Assembly: GCA_963812135.1 (NCBI GenBank)
Contig: CAWETU010000001.1
Coordinates: 160,001-224,000, forward strand
DNA: 64,000 nt
Reading direction: 5' to 3'
DNA from: Vulcanimicrobiota bacterium
GTDB taxonomy: Bacteria > Vulcanimicrobiota > Vulcanimicrobiia > Eremiobacterales > Eremiobacteraceae
Under the pieces are notes generated by a model. That model saw only the letters and a program-made list of their open reading frames with translations, ran no database searches and was not told the origin of the DNA. Below are positions 37,994-46,950 of this stretch, one piece after another. Every line of letters starts with the position of its first letter. The first letter of the stretch is position 1. The position numbers were made by a program, and so were the translations under genes.

Positions 37994-39106
37994 ATGGCAA
38001 CCTTCGTCAAGCTACGCCTTTCGAAGGCCGCGCACACGCTTGCCGGCCGGTACTACACGTCGAATGAGGTGTTCGAGCAAGAGCGCGAGCGCATCTTCAC
38101 GCACGACTGGATCTGCGTCGGCCGCGAGGAGCACCTCGAGCAGTCCGGCAGCTACTTCATCGCGAACGTCGGCGGCGAGAGCCTGATCGTCGTGCGCGAC
38201 GCGAACGGCTCGATCCATGCGCACTACAACGTCTGCCGCCATCGCGGCACGCGCCTTTGCGAGACGGCCGGCGGCAAGTTCACCGGATCGATCGTCTGCC
38301 CGTATCACGCGTGGACGTACGGACTGGATGGACGTCTCATGGCCGCGCGCAATATGCGCGACGTGCCCGATTTCCAGGAAAGCGATTTCCCGCTGCACAG
38401 CGCCGCGATCACCAGCTGGGAAGGCTTCTTGTTCGTCAACTTAGCGGAACGGCCGCAGGCATTTGCGACCGCGCTCGCGCCGCTCGTGGGCCGTTTCGAT
38501 CGTTGGAATATCCGCGCGCTGCGCGAAGCCAAGCGCATCGACTACGAGCTGGCCTGCAACTGGAAGCTCATCTTGCAGAACTATTCGGAGTGTTATCATT
38601 GCCCGCTGGTGCATCCGCAGCTCGATAAAGTGTCGCCGTGGGATAGCGGCCGCAACGATCTCGGGAGCGGGCCGGTGCTCGGCGGTTTCATGTCGCTGCG
38701 GCAGGGCACCGACAGCATGACCTTGAGCGGCCACAGCGCGCGCCCGGCATTGCCGGGGTTAGATGCCGAGGACCGCGAGCGCGTCTACTACTATGAGATC
38801 TTCCCATCGCTGCTCTTGAGCCTGCACCCAGACTACATCATGGCGCATTATCTGACGCCGGTCGCGGTCGACCGCACCCGCGTGACGTGCACGTGGCTGT
38901 TCGACCCGGCCCAGATGGCGCAGCCCGATTTCGATGCGAGCGATGCGGTCGAGTTCTGGGATATGACGAATCGGCAGGATTGGCACGTCTGCGAACTGTC
39001 ACAGCTCGGCGTGAGCTCGCGCGCGTACACGCCGGGACCCTACGCGCATGCGGAGGGTCTGCTGCACGCGTTTGACACACACTACTTGGGCGTTATGGAG
39101 TCGTGA
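37994..39106 (+). CDS. Rieske non-heme iron oxygenase alpha subunit (choline monooxygenase/GbcA-like)
   Basis: CRHRG...CPYHAW Rieske ligands; NWK...NYSECYHC..VH; QD..VCE..Q.G. Confidence 0.92.
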   Translation: MATFVKLRLSKAAHTLAGRYYTSNEVFEQERERIFTHDWICVGREEHLEQSGSYFIANVGGESLIVVRDANGSIHAHYNVCRHRGTRLCETAGGKFTGSIVCPYHAWTYGLDGRLMAARNMRDVPDFQESDFPLHSAAITSWEGFLFVNLAERPQAFATALAPLVGRFDRWNIRALREAKRIDYELACNWKLILQNYSECYHCPLVHPQLDKVSPWDSGRNDLGSGPVLGGFMSLRQGTDSMTLSGHSARPALPGLDAEDRERVYYYEIFPSLLLSLHPDYIMAHYLTPVAVDRTRVTCTWLFDPAQMAQPDFDASDAVEFWDMTNRQDWHVCELSQLGVSSRAYTPGPYAHAEGLLHAFDTHYLGVMES

Positions 39107-39612
39107 TGCGGTTCAATTCGAAAATGCTGGTCGCTCTCGCGCTGTGCGCCGTCGTGCTCGGTGCGCAGGTTCAGACAGCACGCGCGGCGGCGGGCGGCAG
39201 TTTGTCCAGCATGGCGTTCATGCTCGGAACGTGGCTGTGCACGAGCAAGGCGCTCGACGGCAGCACGATCCACACGACGCTGGTCACCCGGCTTTCCAAC
39301 GACGGCACACGTTTGGTCACCCGCGACACGCAGGGGGCGGGCACGACCACGATGTGGTGGGATCCGGCGAAGAAGCAATGGATGCAGACCACCGCCACGA
39401 GCAAGGGCTCAGGCGTTCAGACGTCGCCCGGTTGGACGGGCAACTCGTTGGTGTTCGTCGGAACCCAAGAGGTGAACGGCGTCCCCGTCGGTTTTCGCAA
39501 CACCACGACGAAGGTGAGCGACACGCAGATGCAGGCGATGGACGAGCTTTCCCCGCCCAGCACCGGCCAGTGGGTGACGGTCGATACGACGGTGTGCGCG
39601 AAAGCGCACTAG
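39103..39612 (+). CDS. Secreted hypothetical protein (DUF1579-like beta barrel)
   Basis: Signal peptide; 'F.LGTW.C' and a terminal Cys suggesting one disulfide. Confidence 0.7.
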   Translation: MMRFNSKMLVALALCAVVLGAQVQTARAAAGGSLSSMAFMLGTWLCTSKALDGSTIHTTLVTRLSNDGTRLVTRDTQGAGTTTMWWDPAKKQWMQTTATSKGSGVQTSPGWTGNSLVFVGTQEVNGVPVGFRNTTTKVSDTQMQAMDELSPPSTGQWVTVDTTVCAKAH

Positions 39613-40402: not shown

Positions 40403-40825
40403 TTAGGTGGTCGCCAGCCGCGCTGCGGAGCGGCCTTCCGCGTTCGCGTGGCTTTGCGCTTTGGCGTGCACTTCGCGGACGACGGACTCGAGTTCGTCGA
40501 TGTACGAGAGAAAACGCGTGCGGCCGGCGTTGGTGATGCGGCAGATCGTGGTCGGGCGGCCATGGCCGCTCTCTTTGGTGATGGTGACCACGCCCATGTC
40601 GGCGAGCGCCGTCAGGTGCCGGCTCAGGTTGCCGTCGGTGAGACCGCACGCGTCCTGAAGATCGGTGAAGCTCAAACCTTCGGGGTGCGCCACCAGACAC
40701 GTGCACACCGCGAGCCTGCCGCGCTCGTGGAAGATGCGTTGCAGTCCGGCATAGGCATACGGCGCCTCGCGCGTGCCGGTACGCACCGGTTTCTTGGCGC
40801 TCTTGCGAGCGTTTGTTGAGTTCAT
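40403..40825 (-). CDS. Winged-helix transcriptional regulator (HTH_34/ArsR-MarR-like)
   Basis: FHE..RL, F..L....LTDGNLSRHL..L, RP.T....T..GR..F..Y. Confidence 0.9.
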   Translation of the reverse strand: MNSTNARKSAKKPVRTGTREAPYAYAGLQRIFHERGRLAVCTCLVAHPEGLSFTDLQDACGLTDGNLSRHLTALADMGVVTITKESGHGRPTTICRITNAGRTRFLSYIDELESVVREVHAKAQSHANAEGRSAARLATT

Positions 40826-41457
40826 GAGGAAGTCTCCGAGAGAGCGCCGCTCTGTTCCACGCCCTCAAGCGCGATGAGCCAAGCGATCCAGAATTGTCCG
40901 ATAGCGAAGCCGAGAGCCATCACCCACCACGCCAGCGCGGGCCATTGATTGGGCATGAGCAGCAACGCGGCGCCGACGAGTCCGAACATCGCCGAGACCG
41001 GCAACACTCCTTTGGGCAGATGCGTGCGCGAGGCGAAGAGGCCAAGACCGTAACATGAGAACCAGATGCCGGGCAGCATCGCGGGCACGCCTTGCAGGTA
41101 CACCGCAAGACTCAGCACCGCGCCCAGAGCAAGCGCAGGCAGAATGCTCAAGCTGACTGTCTTCGATTGATACCGCGCCTGGCGCCCGTTGTTACGCAAG
41201 TACCAGCCGAGCAGGTTTCCATAGTAGACGGCGAGCGCGGCAGCGAGGCAGCAGAGCCAGATGGCGACATATGCCCGCACGTCCGATGTCGAGCTCGGGT
41301 GCGGCACGATCCGCGATTGCACCAGTCCGCCCGCGAGCGCGATGCCGCCGCTCAGCGCGGCGACGCGGCTCGAATAGCCGCGGAAACGCTGCACGCTTGC
41401 TAGGCGGTCCCGGACCTCGGTAAGATCCGCTAAGGCGCGCTCGACCTCGACGTTCAT
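40822..41457 (-). CDS. Multi-TM membrane protein co-transcribed with the regulator
   Basis: About 6 TM segments; 'AL.DL..VR' N-terminus; stop overlaps the regulator start. Confidence 0.8.
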   Translation of the reverse strand: MNVEVERALADLTEVRDRLASVQRFRGYSSRVAALSGGIALAGGLVQSRIVPHPSSTSDVRAYVAIWLCCLAAALAVYYGNLLGWYLRNNGRQARYQSKTVSLSILPALALGAVLSLAVYLQGVPAMLPGIWFSCYGLGLFASRTHLPKGVLPVSAMFGLVGAALLLMPNQWPALAWWVMALGFAIGQFWIAWLIALEGVEQSGALSETSS

Positions 41458-42906: not shown

Positions 42907-43881
42907 ATGGACCTCGACAAGCTGATCATCTACCGCGGTGGCGAGTTCGTACCGTACGCCGACACGAAGGTCGGCGTCCTTGCGCACGGGCTCAACTATG
43001 GTACCGGATGTTTCGAGGGCATCCGCGGCTACTGGAACGCCAAGGCCGGACAACTCTATTTCTTCAGATTGCTCGAGCACTACGAGCGCCTCGCGTCCTC
43101 TGCCAAACTGCTGTTGATGGATCTGCCAGAGTCGCCCGAACGGTTGTGCGCGCGCACGGCCGAGCTTGCGCGCCTCAATAACTTCCGGCAGGATCTCTAC
43201 GTCCGGCCGCTGGCCTATAAGAGCGCCGAAGAGATCGGCGTCCGGCTCCACAACGTCTCGCACGAATTCACGATCACGGCCGTCCCTCACAAAGCCTACT
43301 TCGATTCATCGATGGGCCTGCGGGCTTGCATCTCATCGTGGCGGCGCATCGACGACAACGTGGCGCCGGCGCGCGCCAAGCTCACCGGCGTCTACGTCAA
43401 TTCGGCGCTTGCCAAGACCGAAGCAGTCTCGAACGGCTTCGACGAGGCCATCATGCTCAATAAGGAAGGCCACGTCGCCGAGGGCAGCGCGCAGAACATC
43501 ATGATCGTGCGCAACGGAACGGTGATCACGCCGCCGGTGAGCGACGGGATCCTCGAGGGCATCACCAGACGCACTATTATTGAACTATGCCAAAAGGATC
43601 TCAACGTCGAAGTCGTCGAGCGAAGCATCGATCGCAGCGAGCTTTATGTCGCGGATGAGGTGTTTTTGGTAGGGACAGCCGTCGAAGTGACTCCGGTGAT
43701 CGAGGTTGACCACCGCCCGGTCGGCAGTGGCAAGGTCGGCCCGAAGGCTACGAAGCTCCGCGAGATGTACCGCAAAGCCACTGTTGGCGAGCTTTCCGGC
43801 TACCGCCATTGGCTGACCCCAACCTACGATGTCGGCAATAGCGCCAAAATCCACCAGGCGGAAAGAGCGGCAGCTTCCTAG
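42907..43881 (+). CDS. ilvE: Branched-chain amino acid aminotransferase
   Basis: LNYG.G.FEG, AK..G.YVNS, EG...N, LEGITR, GTA.E.TP; SD AGGAG. Confidence 0.95.
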   Translation: MDLDKLIIYRGGEFVPYADTKVGVLAHGLNYGTGCFEGIRGYWNAKAGQLYFFRLLEHYERLASSAKLLLMDLPESPERLCARTAELARLNNFRQDLYVRPLAYKSAEEIGVRLHNVSHEFTITAVPHKAYFDSSMGLRACISSWRRIDDNVAPARAKLTGVYVNSALAKTEAVSNGFDEAIMLNKEGHVAEGSAQNIMIVRNGTVITPPVSDGILEGITRRTIIELCQKDLNVEVVERSIDRSELYVADEVFLVGTAVEVTPVIEVDHRPVGSGKVGPKATKLREMYRKATVGELSGYRHWLTPTYDVGNSAKIHQAERAAAS

Positions 43882-43899: not shown

Positions 43900-43949
43900 T
43901 TGCGGGAGCTTGTTTGCCCCACCTATAATGAAATGTGAGCAGCGTCACG
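43900..43949 (+). promoter_or_regulatory. Sigma70-like promoter with downstream CRP/FNR-like box
   Basis: TTGCGG-N18-TATAAT (43900-43929), then TGTGA-N6-TCACG (43934-43949). Confidence 0.5.
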
Positions 43950-44181
43950 TCTAAACGCTGTAACAAACGATATCAATTGTTAGTCGCGGTCACTCTTGCG
44001 AAACTGTTTGGCAGAACATATCCAAGACGCGATTTGAATGGTATCGTCGGAACACTTGGGGGGCTGATTCCACATCTTGAGCTTTAGAGAGTCGTAGAAA
44101 ATGCGACCGCACCGCCTGGCAGAGGCGGTGCGATCTAAGGCGTTGTGGCGTCCTCTCCGAGTTCGCAGCTGGAGGCTAACC

Positions 44182-44358
44182 ATGCACGAGCTAGGTGGAT
44201 TCCCTCACGCCTTTTCTTTACACATCGGCTTCTATCTGAGCCAACTCGCTGGTTGGGCACATGAGCTTGAGACGTTGATCACAGCAGGGCCAGCGCACAC
44301 TGCTGAGACTCTCATTACAGCCAACGTGCACACCGCCGAAACGCTGATCACGCAGTAG
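44182..44358 (+). CDS. 58-aa putative signalling/precursor peptide with three H-x-x-ETLIT repeats
   Basis: SD GGAGG 6 nt before ATG; MHELGGFPHAFSLHIGFYLSQLAGWAHELETLITAGPAHTAETLITANVHTAETLITQ; repeats differ at synonymous sites. Confidence 0.8.
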   Translation: MHELGGFPHAFSLHIGFYLSQLAGWAHELETLITAGPAHTAETLITANVHTAETLITQ

Positions 44359-44373
44359 CGACATCGGATTAGC

Positions 44374-45696
44374 CTACGCGATCTCGCGGCACAGCAAGTC
44401 GACAAGAGCTGGGTCGTATTGGACCCCGGCGCGTGCCGCGATGGTGCTTAGAGCTTCTTGTTTGCCAAGAGCCCTAGCGTTGTTATGTCCAGTCAGAAGT
44501 TGTAGGTAGTCGCGGGCGATCGCGATTATGCGCGAAGGCGCGGGGATGCGTGAACCCCGCATTCCATGCGGGTACCCACTGCCGTCGAACGCCTCGCACT
44601 GGTGCTCAACCGCGTAAGAAACATCCTCAGGAATAATCTTGGTAGCCTTGCGTAGGACCTGTGCTCCTAGCATAGGATAACGCAGGGCTTCGCTTTGCTG
44701 GGCCGGCGTTAGATTGACGCCTCCACGCACTTCGGGTCCTAGCTTGCATTTGCCGATCTCGTGGAACTCCGCTGCCCACCCAAGGCTCTCCAATTCAGTT
44801 TTGGACATCTGTATTTTCCGACCGATTTGCATGGCAAGATAGCGTACGTCGCCTGCAAATTGTGCGTCTTCGGGACTCATGAGACCGACGAATTCGCGAA
44901 TCATCTCGTGGAACTGGTTCGCCACGAACTCACGCTCGTCACGGGCTTCAACTGCTTGAATAATACGCTCGAACATTCTCGTATGGGCTACGACGTAGTA
45001 AAAGACGATGGCGCCAAGAATCCCGCCGAACGTGTACATTCCGGCTAAGAGATACGCCCATAGCGCTGCAACGAATCCGGCTCTCCAGTACCGCACAAAC
45101 GAAGCAGGCTGCCCGAGAATCGCGAATCCGGTGATCACGAGCCCGTTGTTTACAGTCTGCCAGACCATCCCAATGCCGACGATCCCGACGAACACCAGGA
45201 TAGTGGAAAGAAAATGAGGCGCGTGAGGAATGATTGCCGACACCGCGGAGTAGCTGTAGATCATCGCGTAGATCGCGAGCACTGTGATCCCAAGTTGCCC
45301 GGCCAATGCGTTCACAGCCGCTCCAAGCGGACGGCCTGCCTCCCTCAATCGGACGTGAACCGCACTGAGGCCTATGATCCCTAATGGTAGAGCCCACCAG
45401 CCGATGGTAGCCGCAGCGGCCGCCAGAATCGCAGCGACGGGAGCGTGGACCGCCCGGAAGCTCTCTTGCGGGCGTTCATTTAGCGCGAGAAAAACAGCGA
45501 CGACGGCAACAGTAAAGAGCGTCATTGGCGAAAAGAAATCGAAGTGCGGCGGAGCTACCTTAAGCAGCACCGCGCCAGCCCCTAACAACGCCCAGTAATA
45601 GGCTGCTTTGACTCCCTGGCGCCACGCGACTACGTCTCGTGTTTGAACGCCAGCTGTGCCGATCCGATCGAGTTGCGCCTGCCCTGCCATGGCCAT
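44374..45696 (-). CDS. Multi-TM membrane protein with degenerate HD-GYP domain
   Basis: About 7-8 TM segments, then FHEIGK, HQCEAFDGSGYP, IP..SRIIAIA, G.QYDP. Start uncertain (45690/45696/45750). Confidence 0.85.
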   Translation of the reverse strand: MAMAGQAQLDRIGTAGVQTRDVVAWRQGVKAAYYWALLGAGAVLLKVAPPHFDFFSPMTLFTVAVVAVFLALNERPQESFRAVHAPVAAILAAAAATIGWWALPLGIIGLSAVHVRLREAGRPLGAAVNALAGQLGITVLAIYAMIYSYSAVSAIIPHAPHFLSTILVFVGIVGIGMVWQTVNNGLVITGFAILGQPASFVRYWRAGFVAALWAYLLAGMYTFGGILGAIVFYYVVAHTRMFERIIQAVEARDEREFVANQFHEMIREFVGLMSPEDAQFAGDVRYLAMQIGRKIQMSKTELESLGWAAEFHEIGKCKLGPEVRGGVNLTPAQQSEALRYPMLGAQVLRKATKIIPEDVSYAVEHQCEAFDGSGYPHGMRGSRIPAPSRIIAIARDYLQLLTGHNNARALGKQEALSTIAARAGVQYDPALVDLLCREIA

Positions 45697-45796: not shown

Positions 45797-45854
45797 TGTG
45801 ACCCGCGTCCCCGCATGATTGTGACGCGGCTAACACAGTATGACGCAAGTCACG
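45797..45854. promoter_or_regulatory. Tandem CRP/FNR-like boxes upstream of the HD-GYP gene
   Basis: TGTGA-N6-TAACA (45820-45835), TATGA-N6-TCACG (45839-45854) and a weaker TGTGA-N6-TCCCC (45797-45812). Confidence 0.45.
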
Positions 45855-45887
45855 CACATATGTTCGACGAACGGACTTTGTGTATAA

Positions 45888-46865
45888 CTAATTTGAGGGT
45901 GAAGGGTCGGGGCTCGCCATCAGGTCATCAGGGCTCGAGGTCGGCTGGGCTTGAGGAGCCGCATCAGTTTCCGCAGCGAGGAAAGTGTCGTAGGTGGCCT
46001 TCGAGGCGCGCCGGATGAAACGGGCCCCGTCATCGAGGTCCTCGAGGTGGGTCGTGATCACGCAGATGATGTAGGGCGACCCCTCGAGGTTGACAATGCC
46101 GACGTCGTTGAGCGTGTCGTGCAGCGTCCCCGTCTTGTGTTCCACGACGACGCCCCTGGGGAGCGGCTTCGGCAGCAGATCGTTATGCCGCTGGCCGGCC
46201 AAGATCGAAAGCATCAGGTCGCTCGCGGTTTCATTCACCAGCCTGCGTGCGGCGATCATGGAGAGCAGCCGCATCATATCGTTGGTGCTCGTGCGCAGCG
46301 TCCGAATGCTGCGATCGGACGCGTGAATGCTGTCGCCGAGCCGCGTCTGCGTTAACCCAAGCCCGTCCATCGTCGCGTTGATGTTCTGCCGACCGACCAG
46401 CCGGATCAGCATATTCGTCGCGGTGTTGTCGCTGTTCGCGATCATGATACGGACGAGGTTGAGGACCGAGAAGCGCATGCCGGCGTCCATGTCGCACAAC
46501 GCGCCATATCCGCAGTCTCTATCTTGCGGCAACAGCGTCACCTGGCGTTCGAGCCCGAAACGGCCGAGCCATACTTGACGCATGACCTCGACCATCACCG
46601 CGAGTTTGATGACGCTCGCAGCCGGTAGGTTCTCATCGCCGTTGATGTCGATCGGCGTCTGGCCGTCCGCGTCAGAGACAGTGATTGCCACTAATCCGGG
46701 GGTGTCATTCGCGAGGCGACGCAATTGCGGTTCGAGCACATGCAGGCGCACTTCGAGCGCGGTCCGCGGTGAACCAACGACCTGCAGATCTGAACCGGTC
46801 GACGCACTGCTGACGGCAGCAACCAGTGCCGCCGCGATAAGCACTGCCAAGAATGCGAAACGCAT
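45888..46865 (-). CDS. Class A beta-lactamase-related serine hydrolase
   Basis: Signal peptide; SVIK, SDN and KTG motifs. Confidence 0.9.
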   Translation of the reverse strand: MRFAFLAVLIAAALVAAVSSASTGSDLQVVGSPRTALEVRLHVLEPQLRRLANDTPGLVAITVSDADGQTPIDINGDENLPAASVIKLAVMVEVMRQVWLGRFGLERQVTLLPQDRDCGYGALCDMDAGMRFSVLNLVRIMIANSDNTATNMLIRLVGRQNINATMDGLGLTQTRLGDSIHASDRSIRTLRTSTNDMMRLLSMIAARRLVNETASDLMLSILAGQRHNDLLPKPLPRGVVVEHKTGTLHDTLNDVGIVNLEGSPYIICVITTHLEDLDDGARFIRRASKATYDTFLAAETDAAPQAQPTSSPDDLMASPDPSPSN

Positions 46866-46950
46866 AGCTGTAGACGTGCCTTCCCGCCCCAAAATGTGGC
46901 CGCCTCCGTCCGTGCAAGAATCGAGGCCTACGTCACGAACCGACCAGCCG

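Follow-up and report, generated by a model that had tools for sequence, protein, structure and literature searches.

A gene for a 58-residue peptide and a convergently transcribed gene for a membrane protein with a degenerate HD-GYP domain form a cassette that is exchanged as a block within the Ca. Eremiobacteraceae. The arrangement suggests that this uncultured soil-bacterial family has a hitherto undescribed system of signalling in peptide 'dialects'. The small protein is probably the precursor of an exported and processed peptide signal that is sensed by the cognate membrane receptor, with its output passing through a pseudo-phosphodiesterase. In the accessible part of the literature, in which subscription papers were largely uncovered, we found no description of such a peptide/membrane HD-GYP system. 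We studied the cassette in a window of 64,000 nucleotides, the whole stretch of DNA analysed here, from a 2.79-Mb genome that is 98% complete (G000). An initial annotation of the window had read the 58-residue frame as a multi-copy pheromone precursor; this peptide reading is partly supported, while the partner, the convergent membrane HD-GYP gene that supplies the main evidence, had been missed.

The genes are arranged in the order ilvE (plus strand), a promoter with a leader of about 245 nucleotides, the peptide gene (plus strand), the membrane protein gene (minus strand) and a beta-lactamase-like gene (minus strand), with the following features:

42907-43881, plus strand: ilvE, branched-chain aminotransferase, a flank outside the cassette (found without the cassette in G011 and G025)
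43900-43929, plus strand: putative sigma-70-type promoter, TTGCGG at 43900-43905 and TATAAT at 43924-43929
43934-43949, no strand assigned: CRP/FNR-type palindrome TGTGA-N6-TCAC, just 3' of the -10 element
43937-44181, plus strand: structured 5' leader of about 245 nucleotides with a hairpin at 44105-44135 (folding z = -4.2; putative start site)
44171-44175, plus strand: Shine-Dalgarno sequence GGAGG, with the ATG 6 nt downstream (GGAG/GGAGG in 19/20 ortholog loci; weaker GAGGGG in L012)
44182-44358, plus strand: peptide precursor gene P0001, 58 aa and stop, one copy in G000 by the family profile
44182-44268, plus strand: peptide leader, aa 1-29, His-containing, without Lys/Arg, H-x-L directly before the first core
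44269-44283, plus strand: core copy 1, ETLIT, aa 30-34, at the site of the single core of other genera
44305-44319, plus strand: core copy 2, ETLIT, aa 42-46
44338-44352, plus strand: core copy 3, ETLIT, aa 53-57
44374-45696, minus strand: candidate cognate receptor, 440 aa, stop 15 nt from the peptide stop (alternative GTG start 9 nt further up)
44917-45636, minus strand: N-terminal all-helical membrane domain of the receptor, aa 21-260, varying with the core, no Pfam family
44404-44847, minus strand: degenerate HD-GYP domain (Pfam HD_5, E 1.7e-23)
45888-46892, minus strand: class A beta-lactamase-like serine hydrolase (bla; below the bla_class_A cut-off), a flank outside the cassette (found without the cassette in G011 and G025)

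The evidence confirms the 58-aa ORF as a genuine gene under selection. Its translation contains the repeats AHELETLITA, AHTAETLITA and VHTAETLITQ, and the ETLIT codons are as initially annotated, with all differences between the cores synonymous. The three cores differ by a minimum of six changes, 6/6 of them synonymous (P = 3.6e-4, analytic), and an all-synonymous outcome arose in 206 of 200,000 simulated neutral trios. As the ETLIT core was chosen post hoc, the ortholog data weigh more than this P value: Nei-Gojobori dN/dS is below 1 in 19/19 chosen ortholog pairs (0.07-0.72, one pair saturated), and a check for orthologs retaining frame and repeat found both kept, so that the proposed purifying selection on the peptide is upheld. 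The GGAGG sequence 6 nt ahead of the ATG was confirmed, as was the moderate hydrophobicity of the 25 N-terminal residues (mean Kyte-Doolittle 0.40), of which the best 19-residue window, at 0.75, lies below the level of a membrane helix. ETLIT occurs three times in the six frames of the genome, every time within this ORF. Neither Pfam nor NCBIfam gave a match for the peptide, and its best match in the ESM Atlas scored only 0.77. Two other frames were rejected, namely an 85-aa version from the upstream ATG at 44101, a start that the ortholog frames do not share (the Shine-Dalgarno sequence precedes 44182), and an overlapping minus-strand ORF of 48 aa, an unsupported antisense frame.

The pairing of the two genes is strict. 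A small ORF stands at the equivalent site in all 20 ortholog loci, tail-to-tail with the receptor gene in 20/20, and the peptide profile matches in 72 of 78 partly redundant loci, the six misses comprising two truncated loci and four with peptides that appear diverged by eye. The peptide and the receptor membrane domain have an identical distribution, being found in 20 of 301 genomes of the phylum (G000 and 19/21 family members), with one copy of each gene per genome and two of each in G002. The 279 other genomes yielded no membrane domain and one weak peptide match (E 0.003), inside a 229-aa frame; the cassette was found only in the Ca. Eremiobacteraceae. Among 62 loci recruited mostly by the HD domain alone there was no membrane-domain match, and the only peptide matches, L101 and L129, are family loci. 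In the 97% complete genome G011, ilvE and bla lie on one contig with unrelated genes between them and both cassette genes are absent, while in L086 and L093 the pair adjoins an EAL gene in another context without ilvE or bla. Peptide and receptor are lost or relocated as a unit. As G022 lacks both flanks by these queries along with the cassette, its case is likely a gap. Two unpublished genomes, G013 (L007) and G016 (L017), are counted in the 20/20, 19/21, 18-ortholog and 26/32 tallies given here and enter 2/19 dN/dS pairs, with L017 in 4/42 of the locus pairs considered below; a third, G010, enters only the genome tallies, and the three swap pairs, the AU tests and the G011 result involve no unpublished genomes.

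Several loci depart from the common arrangement. The second ilvE-peptide-receptor locus in G002 (L044, G002:C32:1-2945) is of the type of another genus and lies on a 2.9-kb contig; it is probably binning contamination, with an acquired second cassette as the other option. A diverged cassette subfamily lies downstream of an EAL gene in L086:3760-5192, L093:1528-3300, L092 and L094; in L086 the receptor is preceded by a LuxR-type HTH gene, and L092 and L094 have identical leaders and different cores. In place of the cassette, G011 (L264:1200-3100) has a tandem pair of small paralogous genes together with a glutathione transferase-like gene between ilvE and bla, and G025 has a glycosyltransferase-like membrane gene whose frame contains a TAG codon (labels by eye in both cases).

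The peptide profile recovers 96 proteins, most of them of 35-42 aa with a leader containing two GGVL turns and one core. The core has the consensus [DE]-x-hydrophobic-hydrophobic-x and is single in most genera and present in 2-4 copies in two. Its first position is acidic in 96/96 peptides (89 D and 7 E; the anchor itself was picked by that pattern), its second is variable (T, S, Q, W, C, Y), and in single-copy relatives it is usually preceded by H-x-[LFM]. The orthologs bear out the initial view of a multi-copy precursor: in the genus of the window 11/11 precursors carry 3-4 near-identical cores, each repeating its own word, with ETLIT, ETIIA, ESLVN, DQMIN, DSLIN, DSLIA and DYLIH as the lineage cores. 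Furthermore, the core was independently duplicated in a second genus, where DTGVF occurs three times in P0023 and twice in P0029 and P0038. In P0056, P0058 and P0068 part of the leader is duplicated, giving a third GGVL turn, and not the core. The minimum core-to-core distance is 7 residues (G002, P0126), with spacers down to 2 residues, and copies so close together imply a conserved unit of 5-6 residues, which speaks against the 8-11-mer products initially envisaged. Nor does the first repeat appear to encode a second specificity, as had been suggested, since its core is identical and the difference is limited to the three preceding residues (HEL versus HTA); first copies in the genus retain the ancestral H-x-[LMF] context, so that this difference is positional. 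Variant cores elsewhere occupy the last copy (ETLIC in G005, DQLIN in G006).

A leader followed by repeated cores rich in Thr/Ser and Glu/Asp could also belong to a multi-core RiPP precursor whose enzymes are encoded elsewhere (which might introduce Thr/Ser-Glu/Asp cross-links, for instance), the membrane protein being its sensor. We regard this as very improbable. Unlike multi-core RiPP precursors, the peptide has no tailoring enzyme clustered with it: 0/11 scanned neighbour proteins is one (Pfam; 2/11 without family), and the 20 ortholog loci, where the sequence reaches, contain ilvE, peptide, receptor and bla only. Moreover, the variation of core position 2 leaves no fixed modifiable residue, and the core changes when the receptor alone is swapped. 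The absence of an adjacent modifying enzyme and the preference for a pheromone over a RiPP, both put forward at the outset, are thereby sustained.

The hydrophobicity of the family raises another alternative. There is no K or R among the first 10 residues in any of the 96 peptides, so that the leader departs from a canonical Sec signal, and 76/96 reach a Kyte-Doolittle value of at least 1.6 over 19 residues, enough for a membrane helix. Together with the absence of a processing gene from the cassette, these features would also suit an uncleaved, cell-autonomous partner, the whole peptide resting with its amphipathic leader in the inner membrane and regulating the neighbouring membrane protein of the same cell through its acidic tail; small-protein regulators of sensor kinases offer a model. 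This is unlikely in our opinion, for the best window of the 58-aa peptide reaches only 0.75, and the cores have been multiplied 2-4x, with spacers down to 2 residues, independently in two genera. Moreover, alleles with 56-59% identity persist in near-identical genomes, and it is not evident why a private partner should maintain them.

The candidate receptor retains the HD-GYP fold and has lost its catalytic motifs. By the motif definitions in the accessible text of Galperin and Chou (10.1101/2021.11.05.467447), HD has become HE, HHE has become QCE, the first metal-binding His is replaced by Phe, the RxY[KR] motif is absent and GYP is retained; the signature of an active phosphodiesterase (H...HD...HHE, RxY[KR]) is thus lacking. 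Across the orthologs HD is found in 0/18, HHE in 0/18 and GYP in 14/18, and an invariant Phe replaces the first His. The best fold match is DvhD (9rbz, Foldseek E 1.6e-6), and at E <= 0.001 Foldseek matched the HD domain alone. Family scans detected no TPR, HTH or kinase domain. DvhD is itself a catalytically dead, non-hydrolysing HD-GYP receptor according to the accessible text of PMC13090378. The candidate receptor resembles DvhD and HnoD (PMC13090378 and 10.1101/2021.11.05.467447, accessible parts), which are membrane-linked or response-regulator HD-GYP proteins without the HD/HH ligands that signal by c-di-GMP binding or protein contact. DvhD differs from the candidate receptor in its dCache and PAS domains and in its control of an adhesin protease, and the accessible text of PMC13090378 describes no peptide gene partner for it. 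The receptor is in two frames in G005 (L006:2405-2500) and in two pieces in G047 (L064). As the ilvE end of G005 is apparently shifted too, assembly indels are likely; its HD-domain identity of 20% is a frameshift artefact and was left out, and L006 (frameshift) and L020 (partial) stand outside alignments A1 and A2, the latter being that of the receptor membrane domain.

The membrane domain is more isolated. A search of its profile against 1.84 billion representatives gave 20 matches, and a PDB sequence search gave two, at E ~2. The helices of the model (pTM 0.49) and the charge distribution are compatible with about eight membrane segments and a short hairpin. By ESM features the domain scores 0.93 to its nearest ESM Atlas clusters, in which 11-13% of members carry MASE9. 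In MASE9-HD-GYP proteins such as T. maritima TM1467 and S. venezuelae HdgA the ligand has been proposed to bind within the membrane (Galperin and Chou, 10.1101/2021.11.05.467447, accessible part); the word 'peptide' is absent from the accessible main text of that paper. Our candidate may share with these proteins, as described there, a membrane domain of about eight helices with a short hairpin ahead of the HD-GYP domain, and it differs from them in having no PF20972 match and in the loss of the catalytic motifs. MASE9 (PF20972) was found in the membrane domain of 0/18 members, nowhere in the own genome and in 0/21 family genomes, hhalign against six MASE9 proteins returned a probability of 0.1, and DUF5317 was found in none of 32 family genomes; kinship with MASE9 is a lead and not a demonstrated relation. 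A paralogous membrane protein (27% identity), whose tail is HD-GYP-like, is encoded at G000:C1:1050843-1051973 (L039), with a two-component pair and a small gene for a cupredoxin-like protein as neighbours, and among the matches listed no peptide of the family lies near it.

The relation between peptide and receptor is most evident where closely related strains differ. In the sister pairs G005/G006, G003/G002 and L077/L156 the flank proteins are 90-98% identical, the cores differ and the receptor membrane domains are 56-59% identical. DNA identity falls only between the start codons of peptide and receptor: in G005/G006 it is 79-95% outside and 47-83% between them, and in L077/L156, with the cores DTAVW and DTVGW, 95-100% outside and 48-78% inside. 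The tree of the flanks joins G005 with G006 and G003 with G002 (100/100 support), whereas the receptor tree sets G002 and G006 apart from the rest (100/100), which corresponds to a division of Asn-ending from ET-type cores. AU tests, whose groups were named after the trees had been seen, reject the flank and receptor topologies on each other's data (p = 2.9e-7, 1.1e-4 and 6.7e-5). Of the 78 loci, 57 with both genes and enough of the membrane domain were kept, reduced to 39 without identical rows and to 37 when L200 and L204, which duplicate L149 and L156, were dropped. In 42 pairs with flanks 80-99% identical, which are non-independent through common ancestry and in some cases have one flank only, receptor-domain identity is 81-97% where the cores agree (10 pairs) and 50-76% where they differ (32 pairs). 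Linkage bears on this comparison, as jointly recombining neighbours co-vary whether or not their products bind. Between core types the first membrane helices are 41-54% identical, the HD domain 70-83% and the last two helices 82-98%; the deepest divergence thus lies in the first helices, at the gene end far from the peptide, which would be expected of a region that reads the ligand. Judged from sequence, the co-exchange and the core-receptor co-variation are the signature of a putative peptide-receptor specificity cassette.

Toxin-immunity pairs, too, would be expected to have deeply divergent alleles that are exchanged as cassettes, and the long folded 5' leader, the repressor-like site and the convergent gene resemble the setting of type I toxin mRNAs. 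The peptide might accordingly be bacteriocin-like or type I toxin-like, and the membrane protein might protect from, or recognise, the matching allele in a toxin-immunity or self/non-self pair. We hold this to be decidedly unlikely, since selection and repetition concern the 5-residue acidic core and not the amphipathic part, the partner has a conserved cytoplasmic signalling fold, the peptide matches no bacteriocin or toxin family, and no C39 exporter was found. The C39 peptidase transporter (PF03412) was sought in the 98%-complete genome with 7/14 controls positive, and its apparent absence also sets the peptide apart from double-glycine peptides (ComC, class II bacteriocins).

For the favoured reading, a peptide signal, we propose the following mechanism. 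The leader would carry the pre-peptide out of the cytoplasm, and a cut before the acidic residue, after H-x-[LAQF], would release peptides of 5-7 residues starting with Glu/Asp (here ETLIT and 1-2 further residues), three per precursor. Such a peptide, perhaps passing from cell to cell, would be bound and read by the convergently encoded inner-membrane protein via its variable membrane domain. As the HD-GYP domain is without metal ligands, the output would occur by conformation or protein contact and not by hydrolysis. It would probably feed into cyclic di-GMP signalling, a link weakened by the absence of the RxY[KR] c-di-GMP motif; a motif search of G000 found five GGDEF-motif frames, one EAL and one intact-looking HD-GYP. 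The core/receptor alleles would constitute specificity groups (pherotypes), recombined as one block between conserved promoters. Prediction of a complex between membrane domain and peptide gave scores of 0.00 and 0.31 against a mark of 0.32, with controls that were unfolded, and weighs neither for nor against the proposal. No protease or transporter gene lies within the cassette; the genome has five M50 protease genes and five Rce1-like matches, none linked to it. Omp85 gives the host a diderm look, and the one cultured member of the phylum, which falls in the other order, has a Gram-negative envelope (PMC9758169, accessible part). The host is probably diderm, which would require the signal to cross an outer membrane and counts against the peptide-signal reading.

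In Rap-Phr and NprR-NprX the signal may be duplicated within its gene, at times with one copy diverged, and this duplication accompanies specificity change (Even-Tov et al. 2016, PMC5199041, accessible text). The cassette is reminiscent of these systems, as far as that text describes them, in its small pre-peptide beside a receptor gene, a signal of probably 5-6 residues, duplication, co-divergence and horizontal exchange. The short C-terminal signal of RRNPP systems, sometimes duplicated, has its counterpart in the 2-4 cores found in two genera, which we take as candidate mature signals. The RRNPP receptors are cytoplasmic TPR proteins, whereas here the partner is a polytopic protein of the membrane whose HD-GYP domain is dead; phr lies behind rap, co-directional and with a secretion signal (PMC5199041, accessible part), whereas here the genes are convergent in 20/20 loci, the leader is without a basic N-region and the host is diderm in appearance. 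In Rgg/SHP systems the mature peptide begins with a conserved Asp/Glu followed by hydrophobic residues, and the route comprises PptAB export, Eep trimming and Opp re-import (review PMC13361665, accessible part). Like these, the cassette combines a hydrophobic precursor, a core with Asp/Glu first and the lack of a dedicated exporter in the locus, and group III genes are convergent as well (PMC13361665, same part); in our case the cleavage is presumed. Rgg/SHP differs in that Rgg is an HTH-TPR regulator of the cytoplasm, to which the peptide gains access through re-import, and in that SHPs are of about 22-23 aa with one core (PMC13361665, same part). No sequence relation to Rgg/SHP was detected. 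By analogy, the cassette would work like Rap-Phr and Rgg/SHP and is a member of neither, its receptor being different. In ComQXPA, Agr and ComCDE the sensor domain of a membrane receptor and the peptide are exchanged as a polymorphic block between conserved flanks, and this joint exchange is also what we observe. The receptors of those systems are histidine kinases that come with response regulators and dedicated processing and export genes; unlike them, our cassette has no kinase, response regulator, processing or export gene between ilvE and bla.

To our knowledge, the receptors characterised so far in peptide quorum sensing are either histidine kinases or RRNPP proteins of the cytoplasm, and almost all come from Bacillota. 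If our proposal is true, the cassette would provide a third type of peptide receptor, one from a diderm phylum, and would link the HD-GYP fold to peptide signalling. Orphan membrane sensors with a fused HD-GYP domain would also gain a class of candidate ligands; should the membrane domain be a diverged MASE9, these peptides would be the first ligands of that orphan sensor class. It would also be an independent instance of signal duplication, to be compared with Phr. The more specific picture is that of a new family of unmodified multi-copy 5-7-mer pheromones in an uncultured soil lineage of diderms, which a membrane pseudo-phosphodiesterase reads directly in place of a histidine kinase or an RRNPP protein, with dozens of naturally swapped specificity groups and a CRP-type operator that pilin-like genes share; it seems to us evenly poised between right and wrong. 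The claim is open to a culture-free test, with predicted peptides of 5-7 unmodified residues and natural cognate/non-cognate pairs in near-identical genomes (L077/L156, G005/G006, G003/G002).

The region ahead of the peptide gene is likewise conserved. Most ortholog loci have TATAAT or TATACT followed by the palindrome; the putative promoter of the window, with its 18-nt spacer and weak -35 element, is not among the calls of a consensus promoter scan. GTGA-N6-TCAC stands at the equivalent place in 19/20 loci (L001-L020), with GTAA in the remaining one, and the strict pattern gives 49 sites in 26/32 family genomes against one for the reversed control. From its consensus, we take the palindrome to be a putative CRP-type site, and its position is likely that of a predicted repressor site. 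In G000 an operator weight matrix gave five matches versus 3-5 in shuffles and a loose pattern seven versus 2-8, neither above the shuffles, so that a regulon is not shown in this genome and the support for the site is the cross-genome count. Upstream of the beta-lactamase-like gene (45815-45880) several GTCAC/TCACA half-sites occur, with full palindromes in L013, L014 and L018. The 5' leader folds strongly in 4/4 genera (z = -5.1, -4.4 and -3.5 in the three others), and 9/53 pairs of its consensus structure show two-sided change among seven sequences of the genus; Rfam searches of 12 loci gave nothing credible, and the leader matches no Rfam family.

Thirteen loci surround operator sites away from the ilvE-linked peptide gene; two sites precede Pfam-supported pilin-like genes, one a pilin-like N-terminus and two TonB-system genes, and the operator link to pilin-like genes is a lead only. 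At G000:C1:1850063-1850151 (L196) two CRP-type palindromes 73 nt apart lie upstream of a duplicated pilin-like gene set (1846948-1853391), the site being the strongest of the genome by the operator matrix. A type IV pilus cluster (L211, G000:C1:1491820-1499133) encodes a PilT-like ATPase, PilC-like, pilin-like, prepilin peptidase-like and PilM-like proteins and a sigma-70-family factor, and holds a CRP-family regulator gene (G000:C1:1497044-1497805) and a TGTGA-N6-TCAC site at 1495049. Elsewhere in the window, a winged-helix regulator gene (HTH_34) overlaps that of a 211-aa membrane protein without a Pfam family at 40403-41457, and a 169-aa secreted-looking protein, also without a Pfam family, is encoded at 39103-39612 between a Rieske oxygenase gene and an isoprenyl-transferase-like gene.
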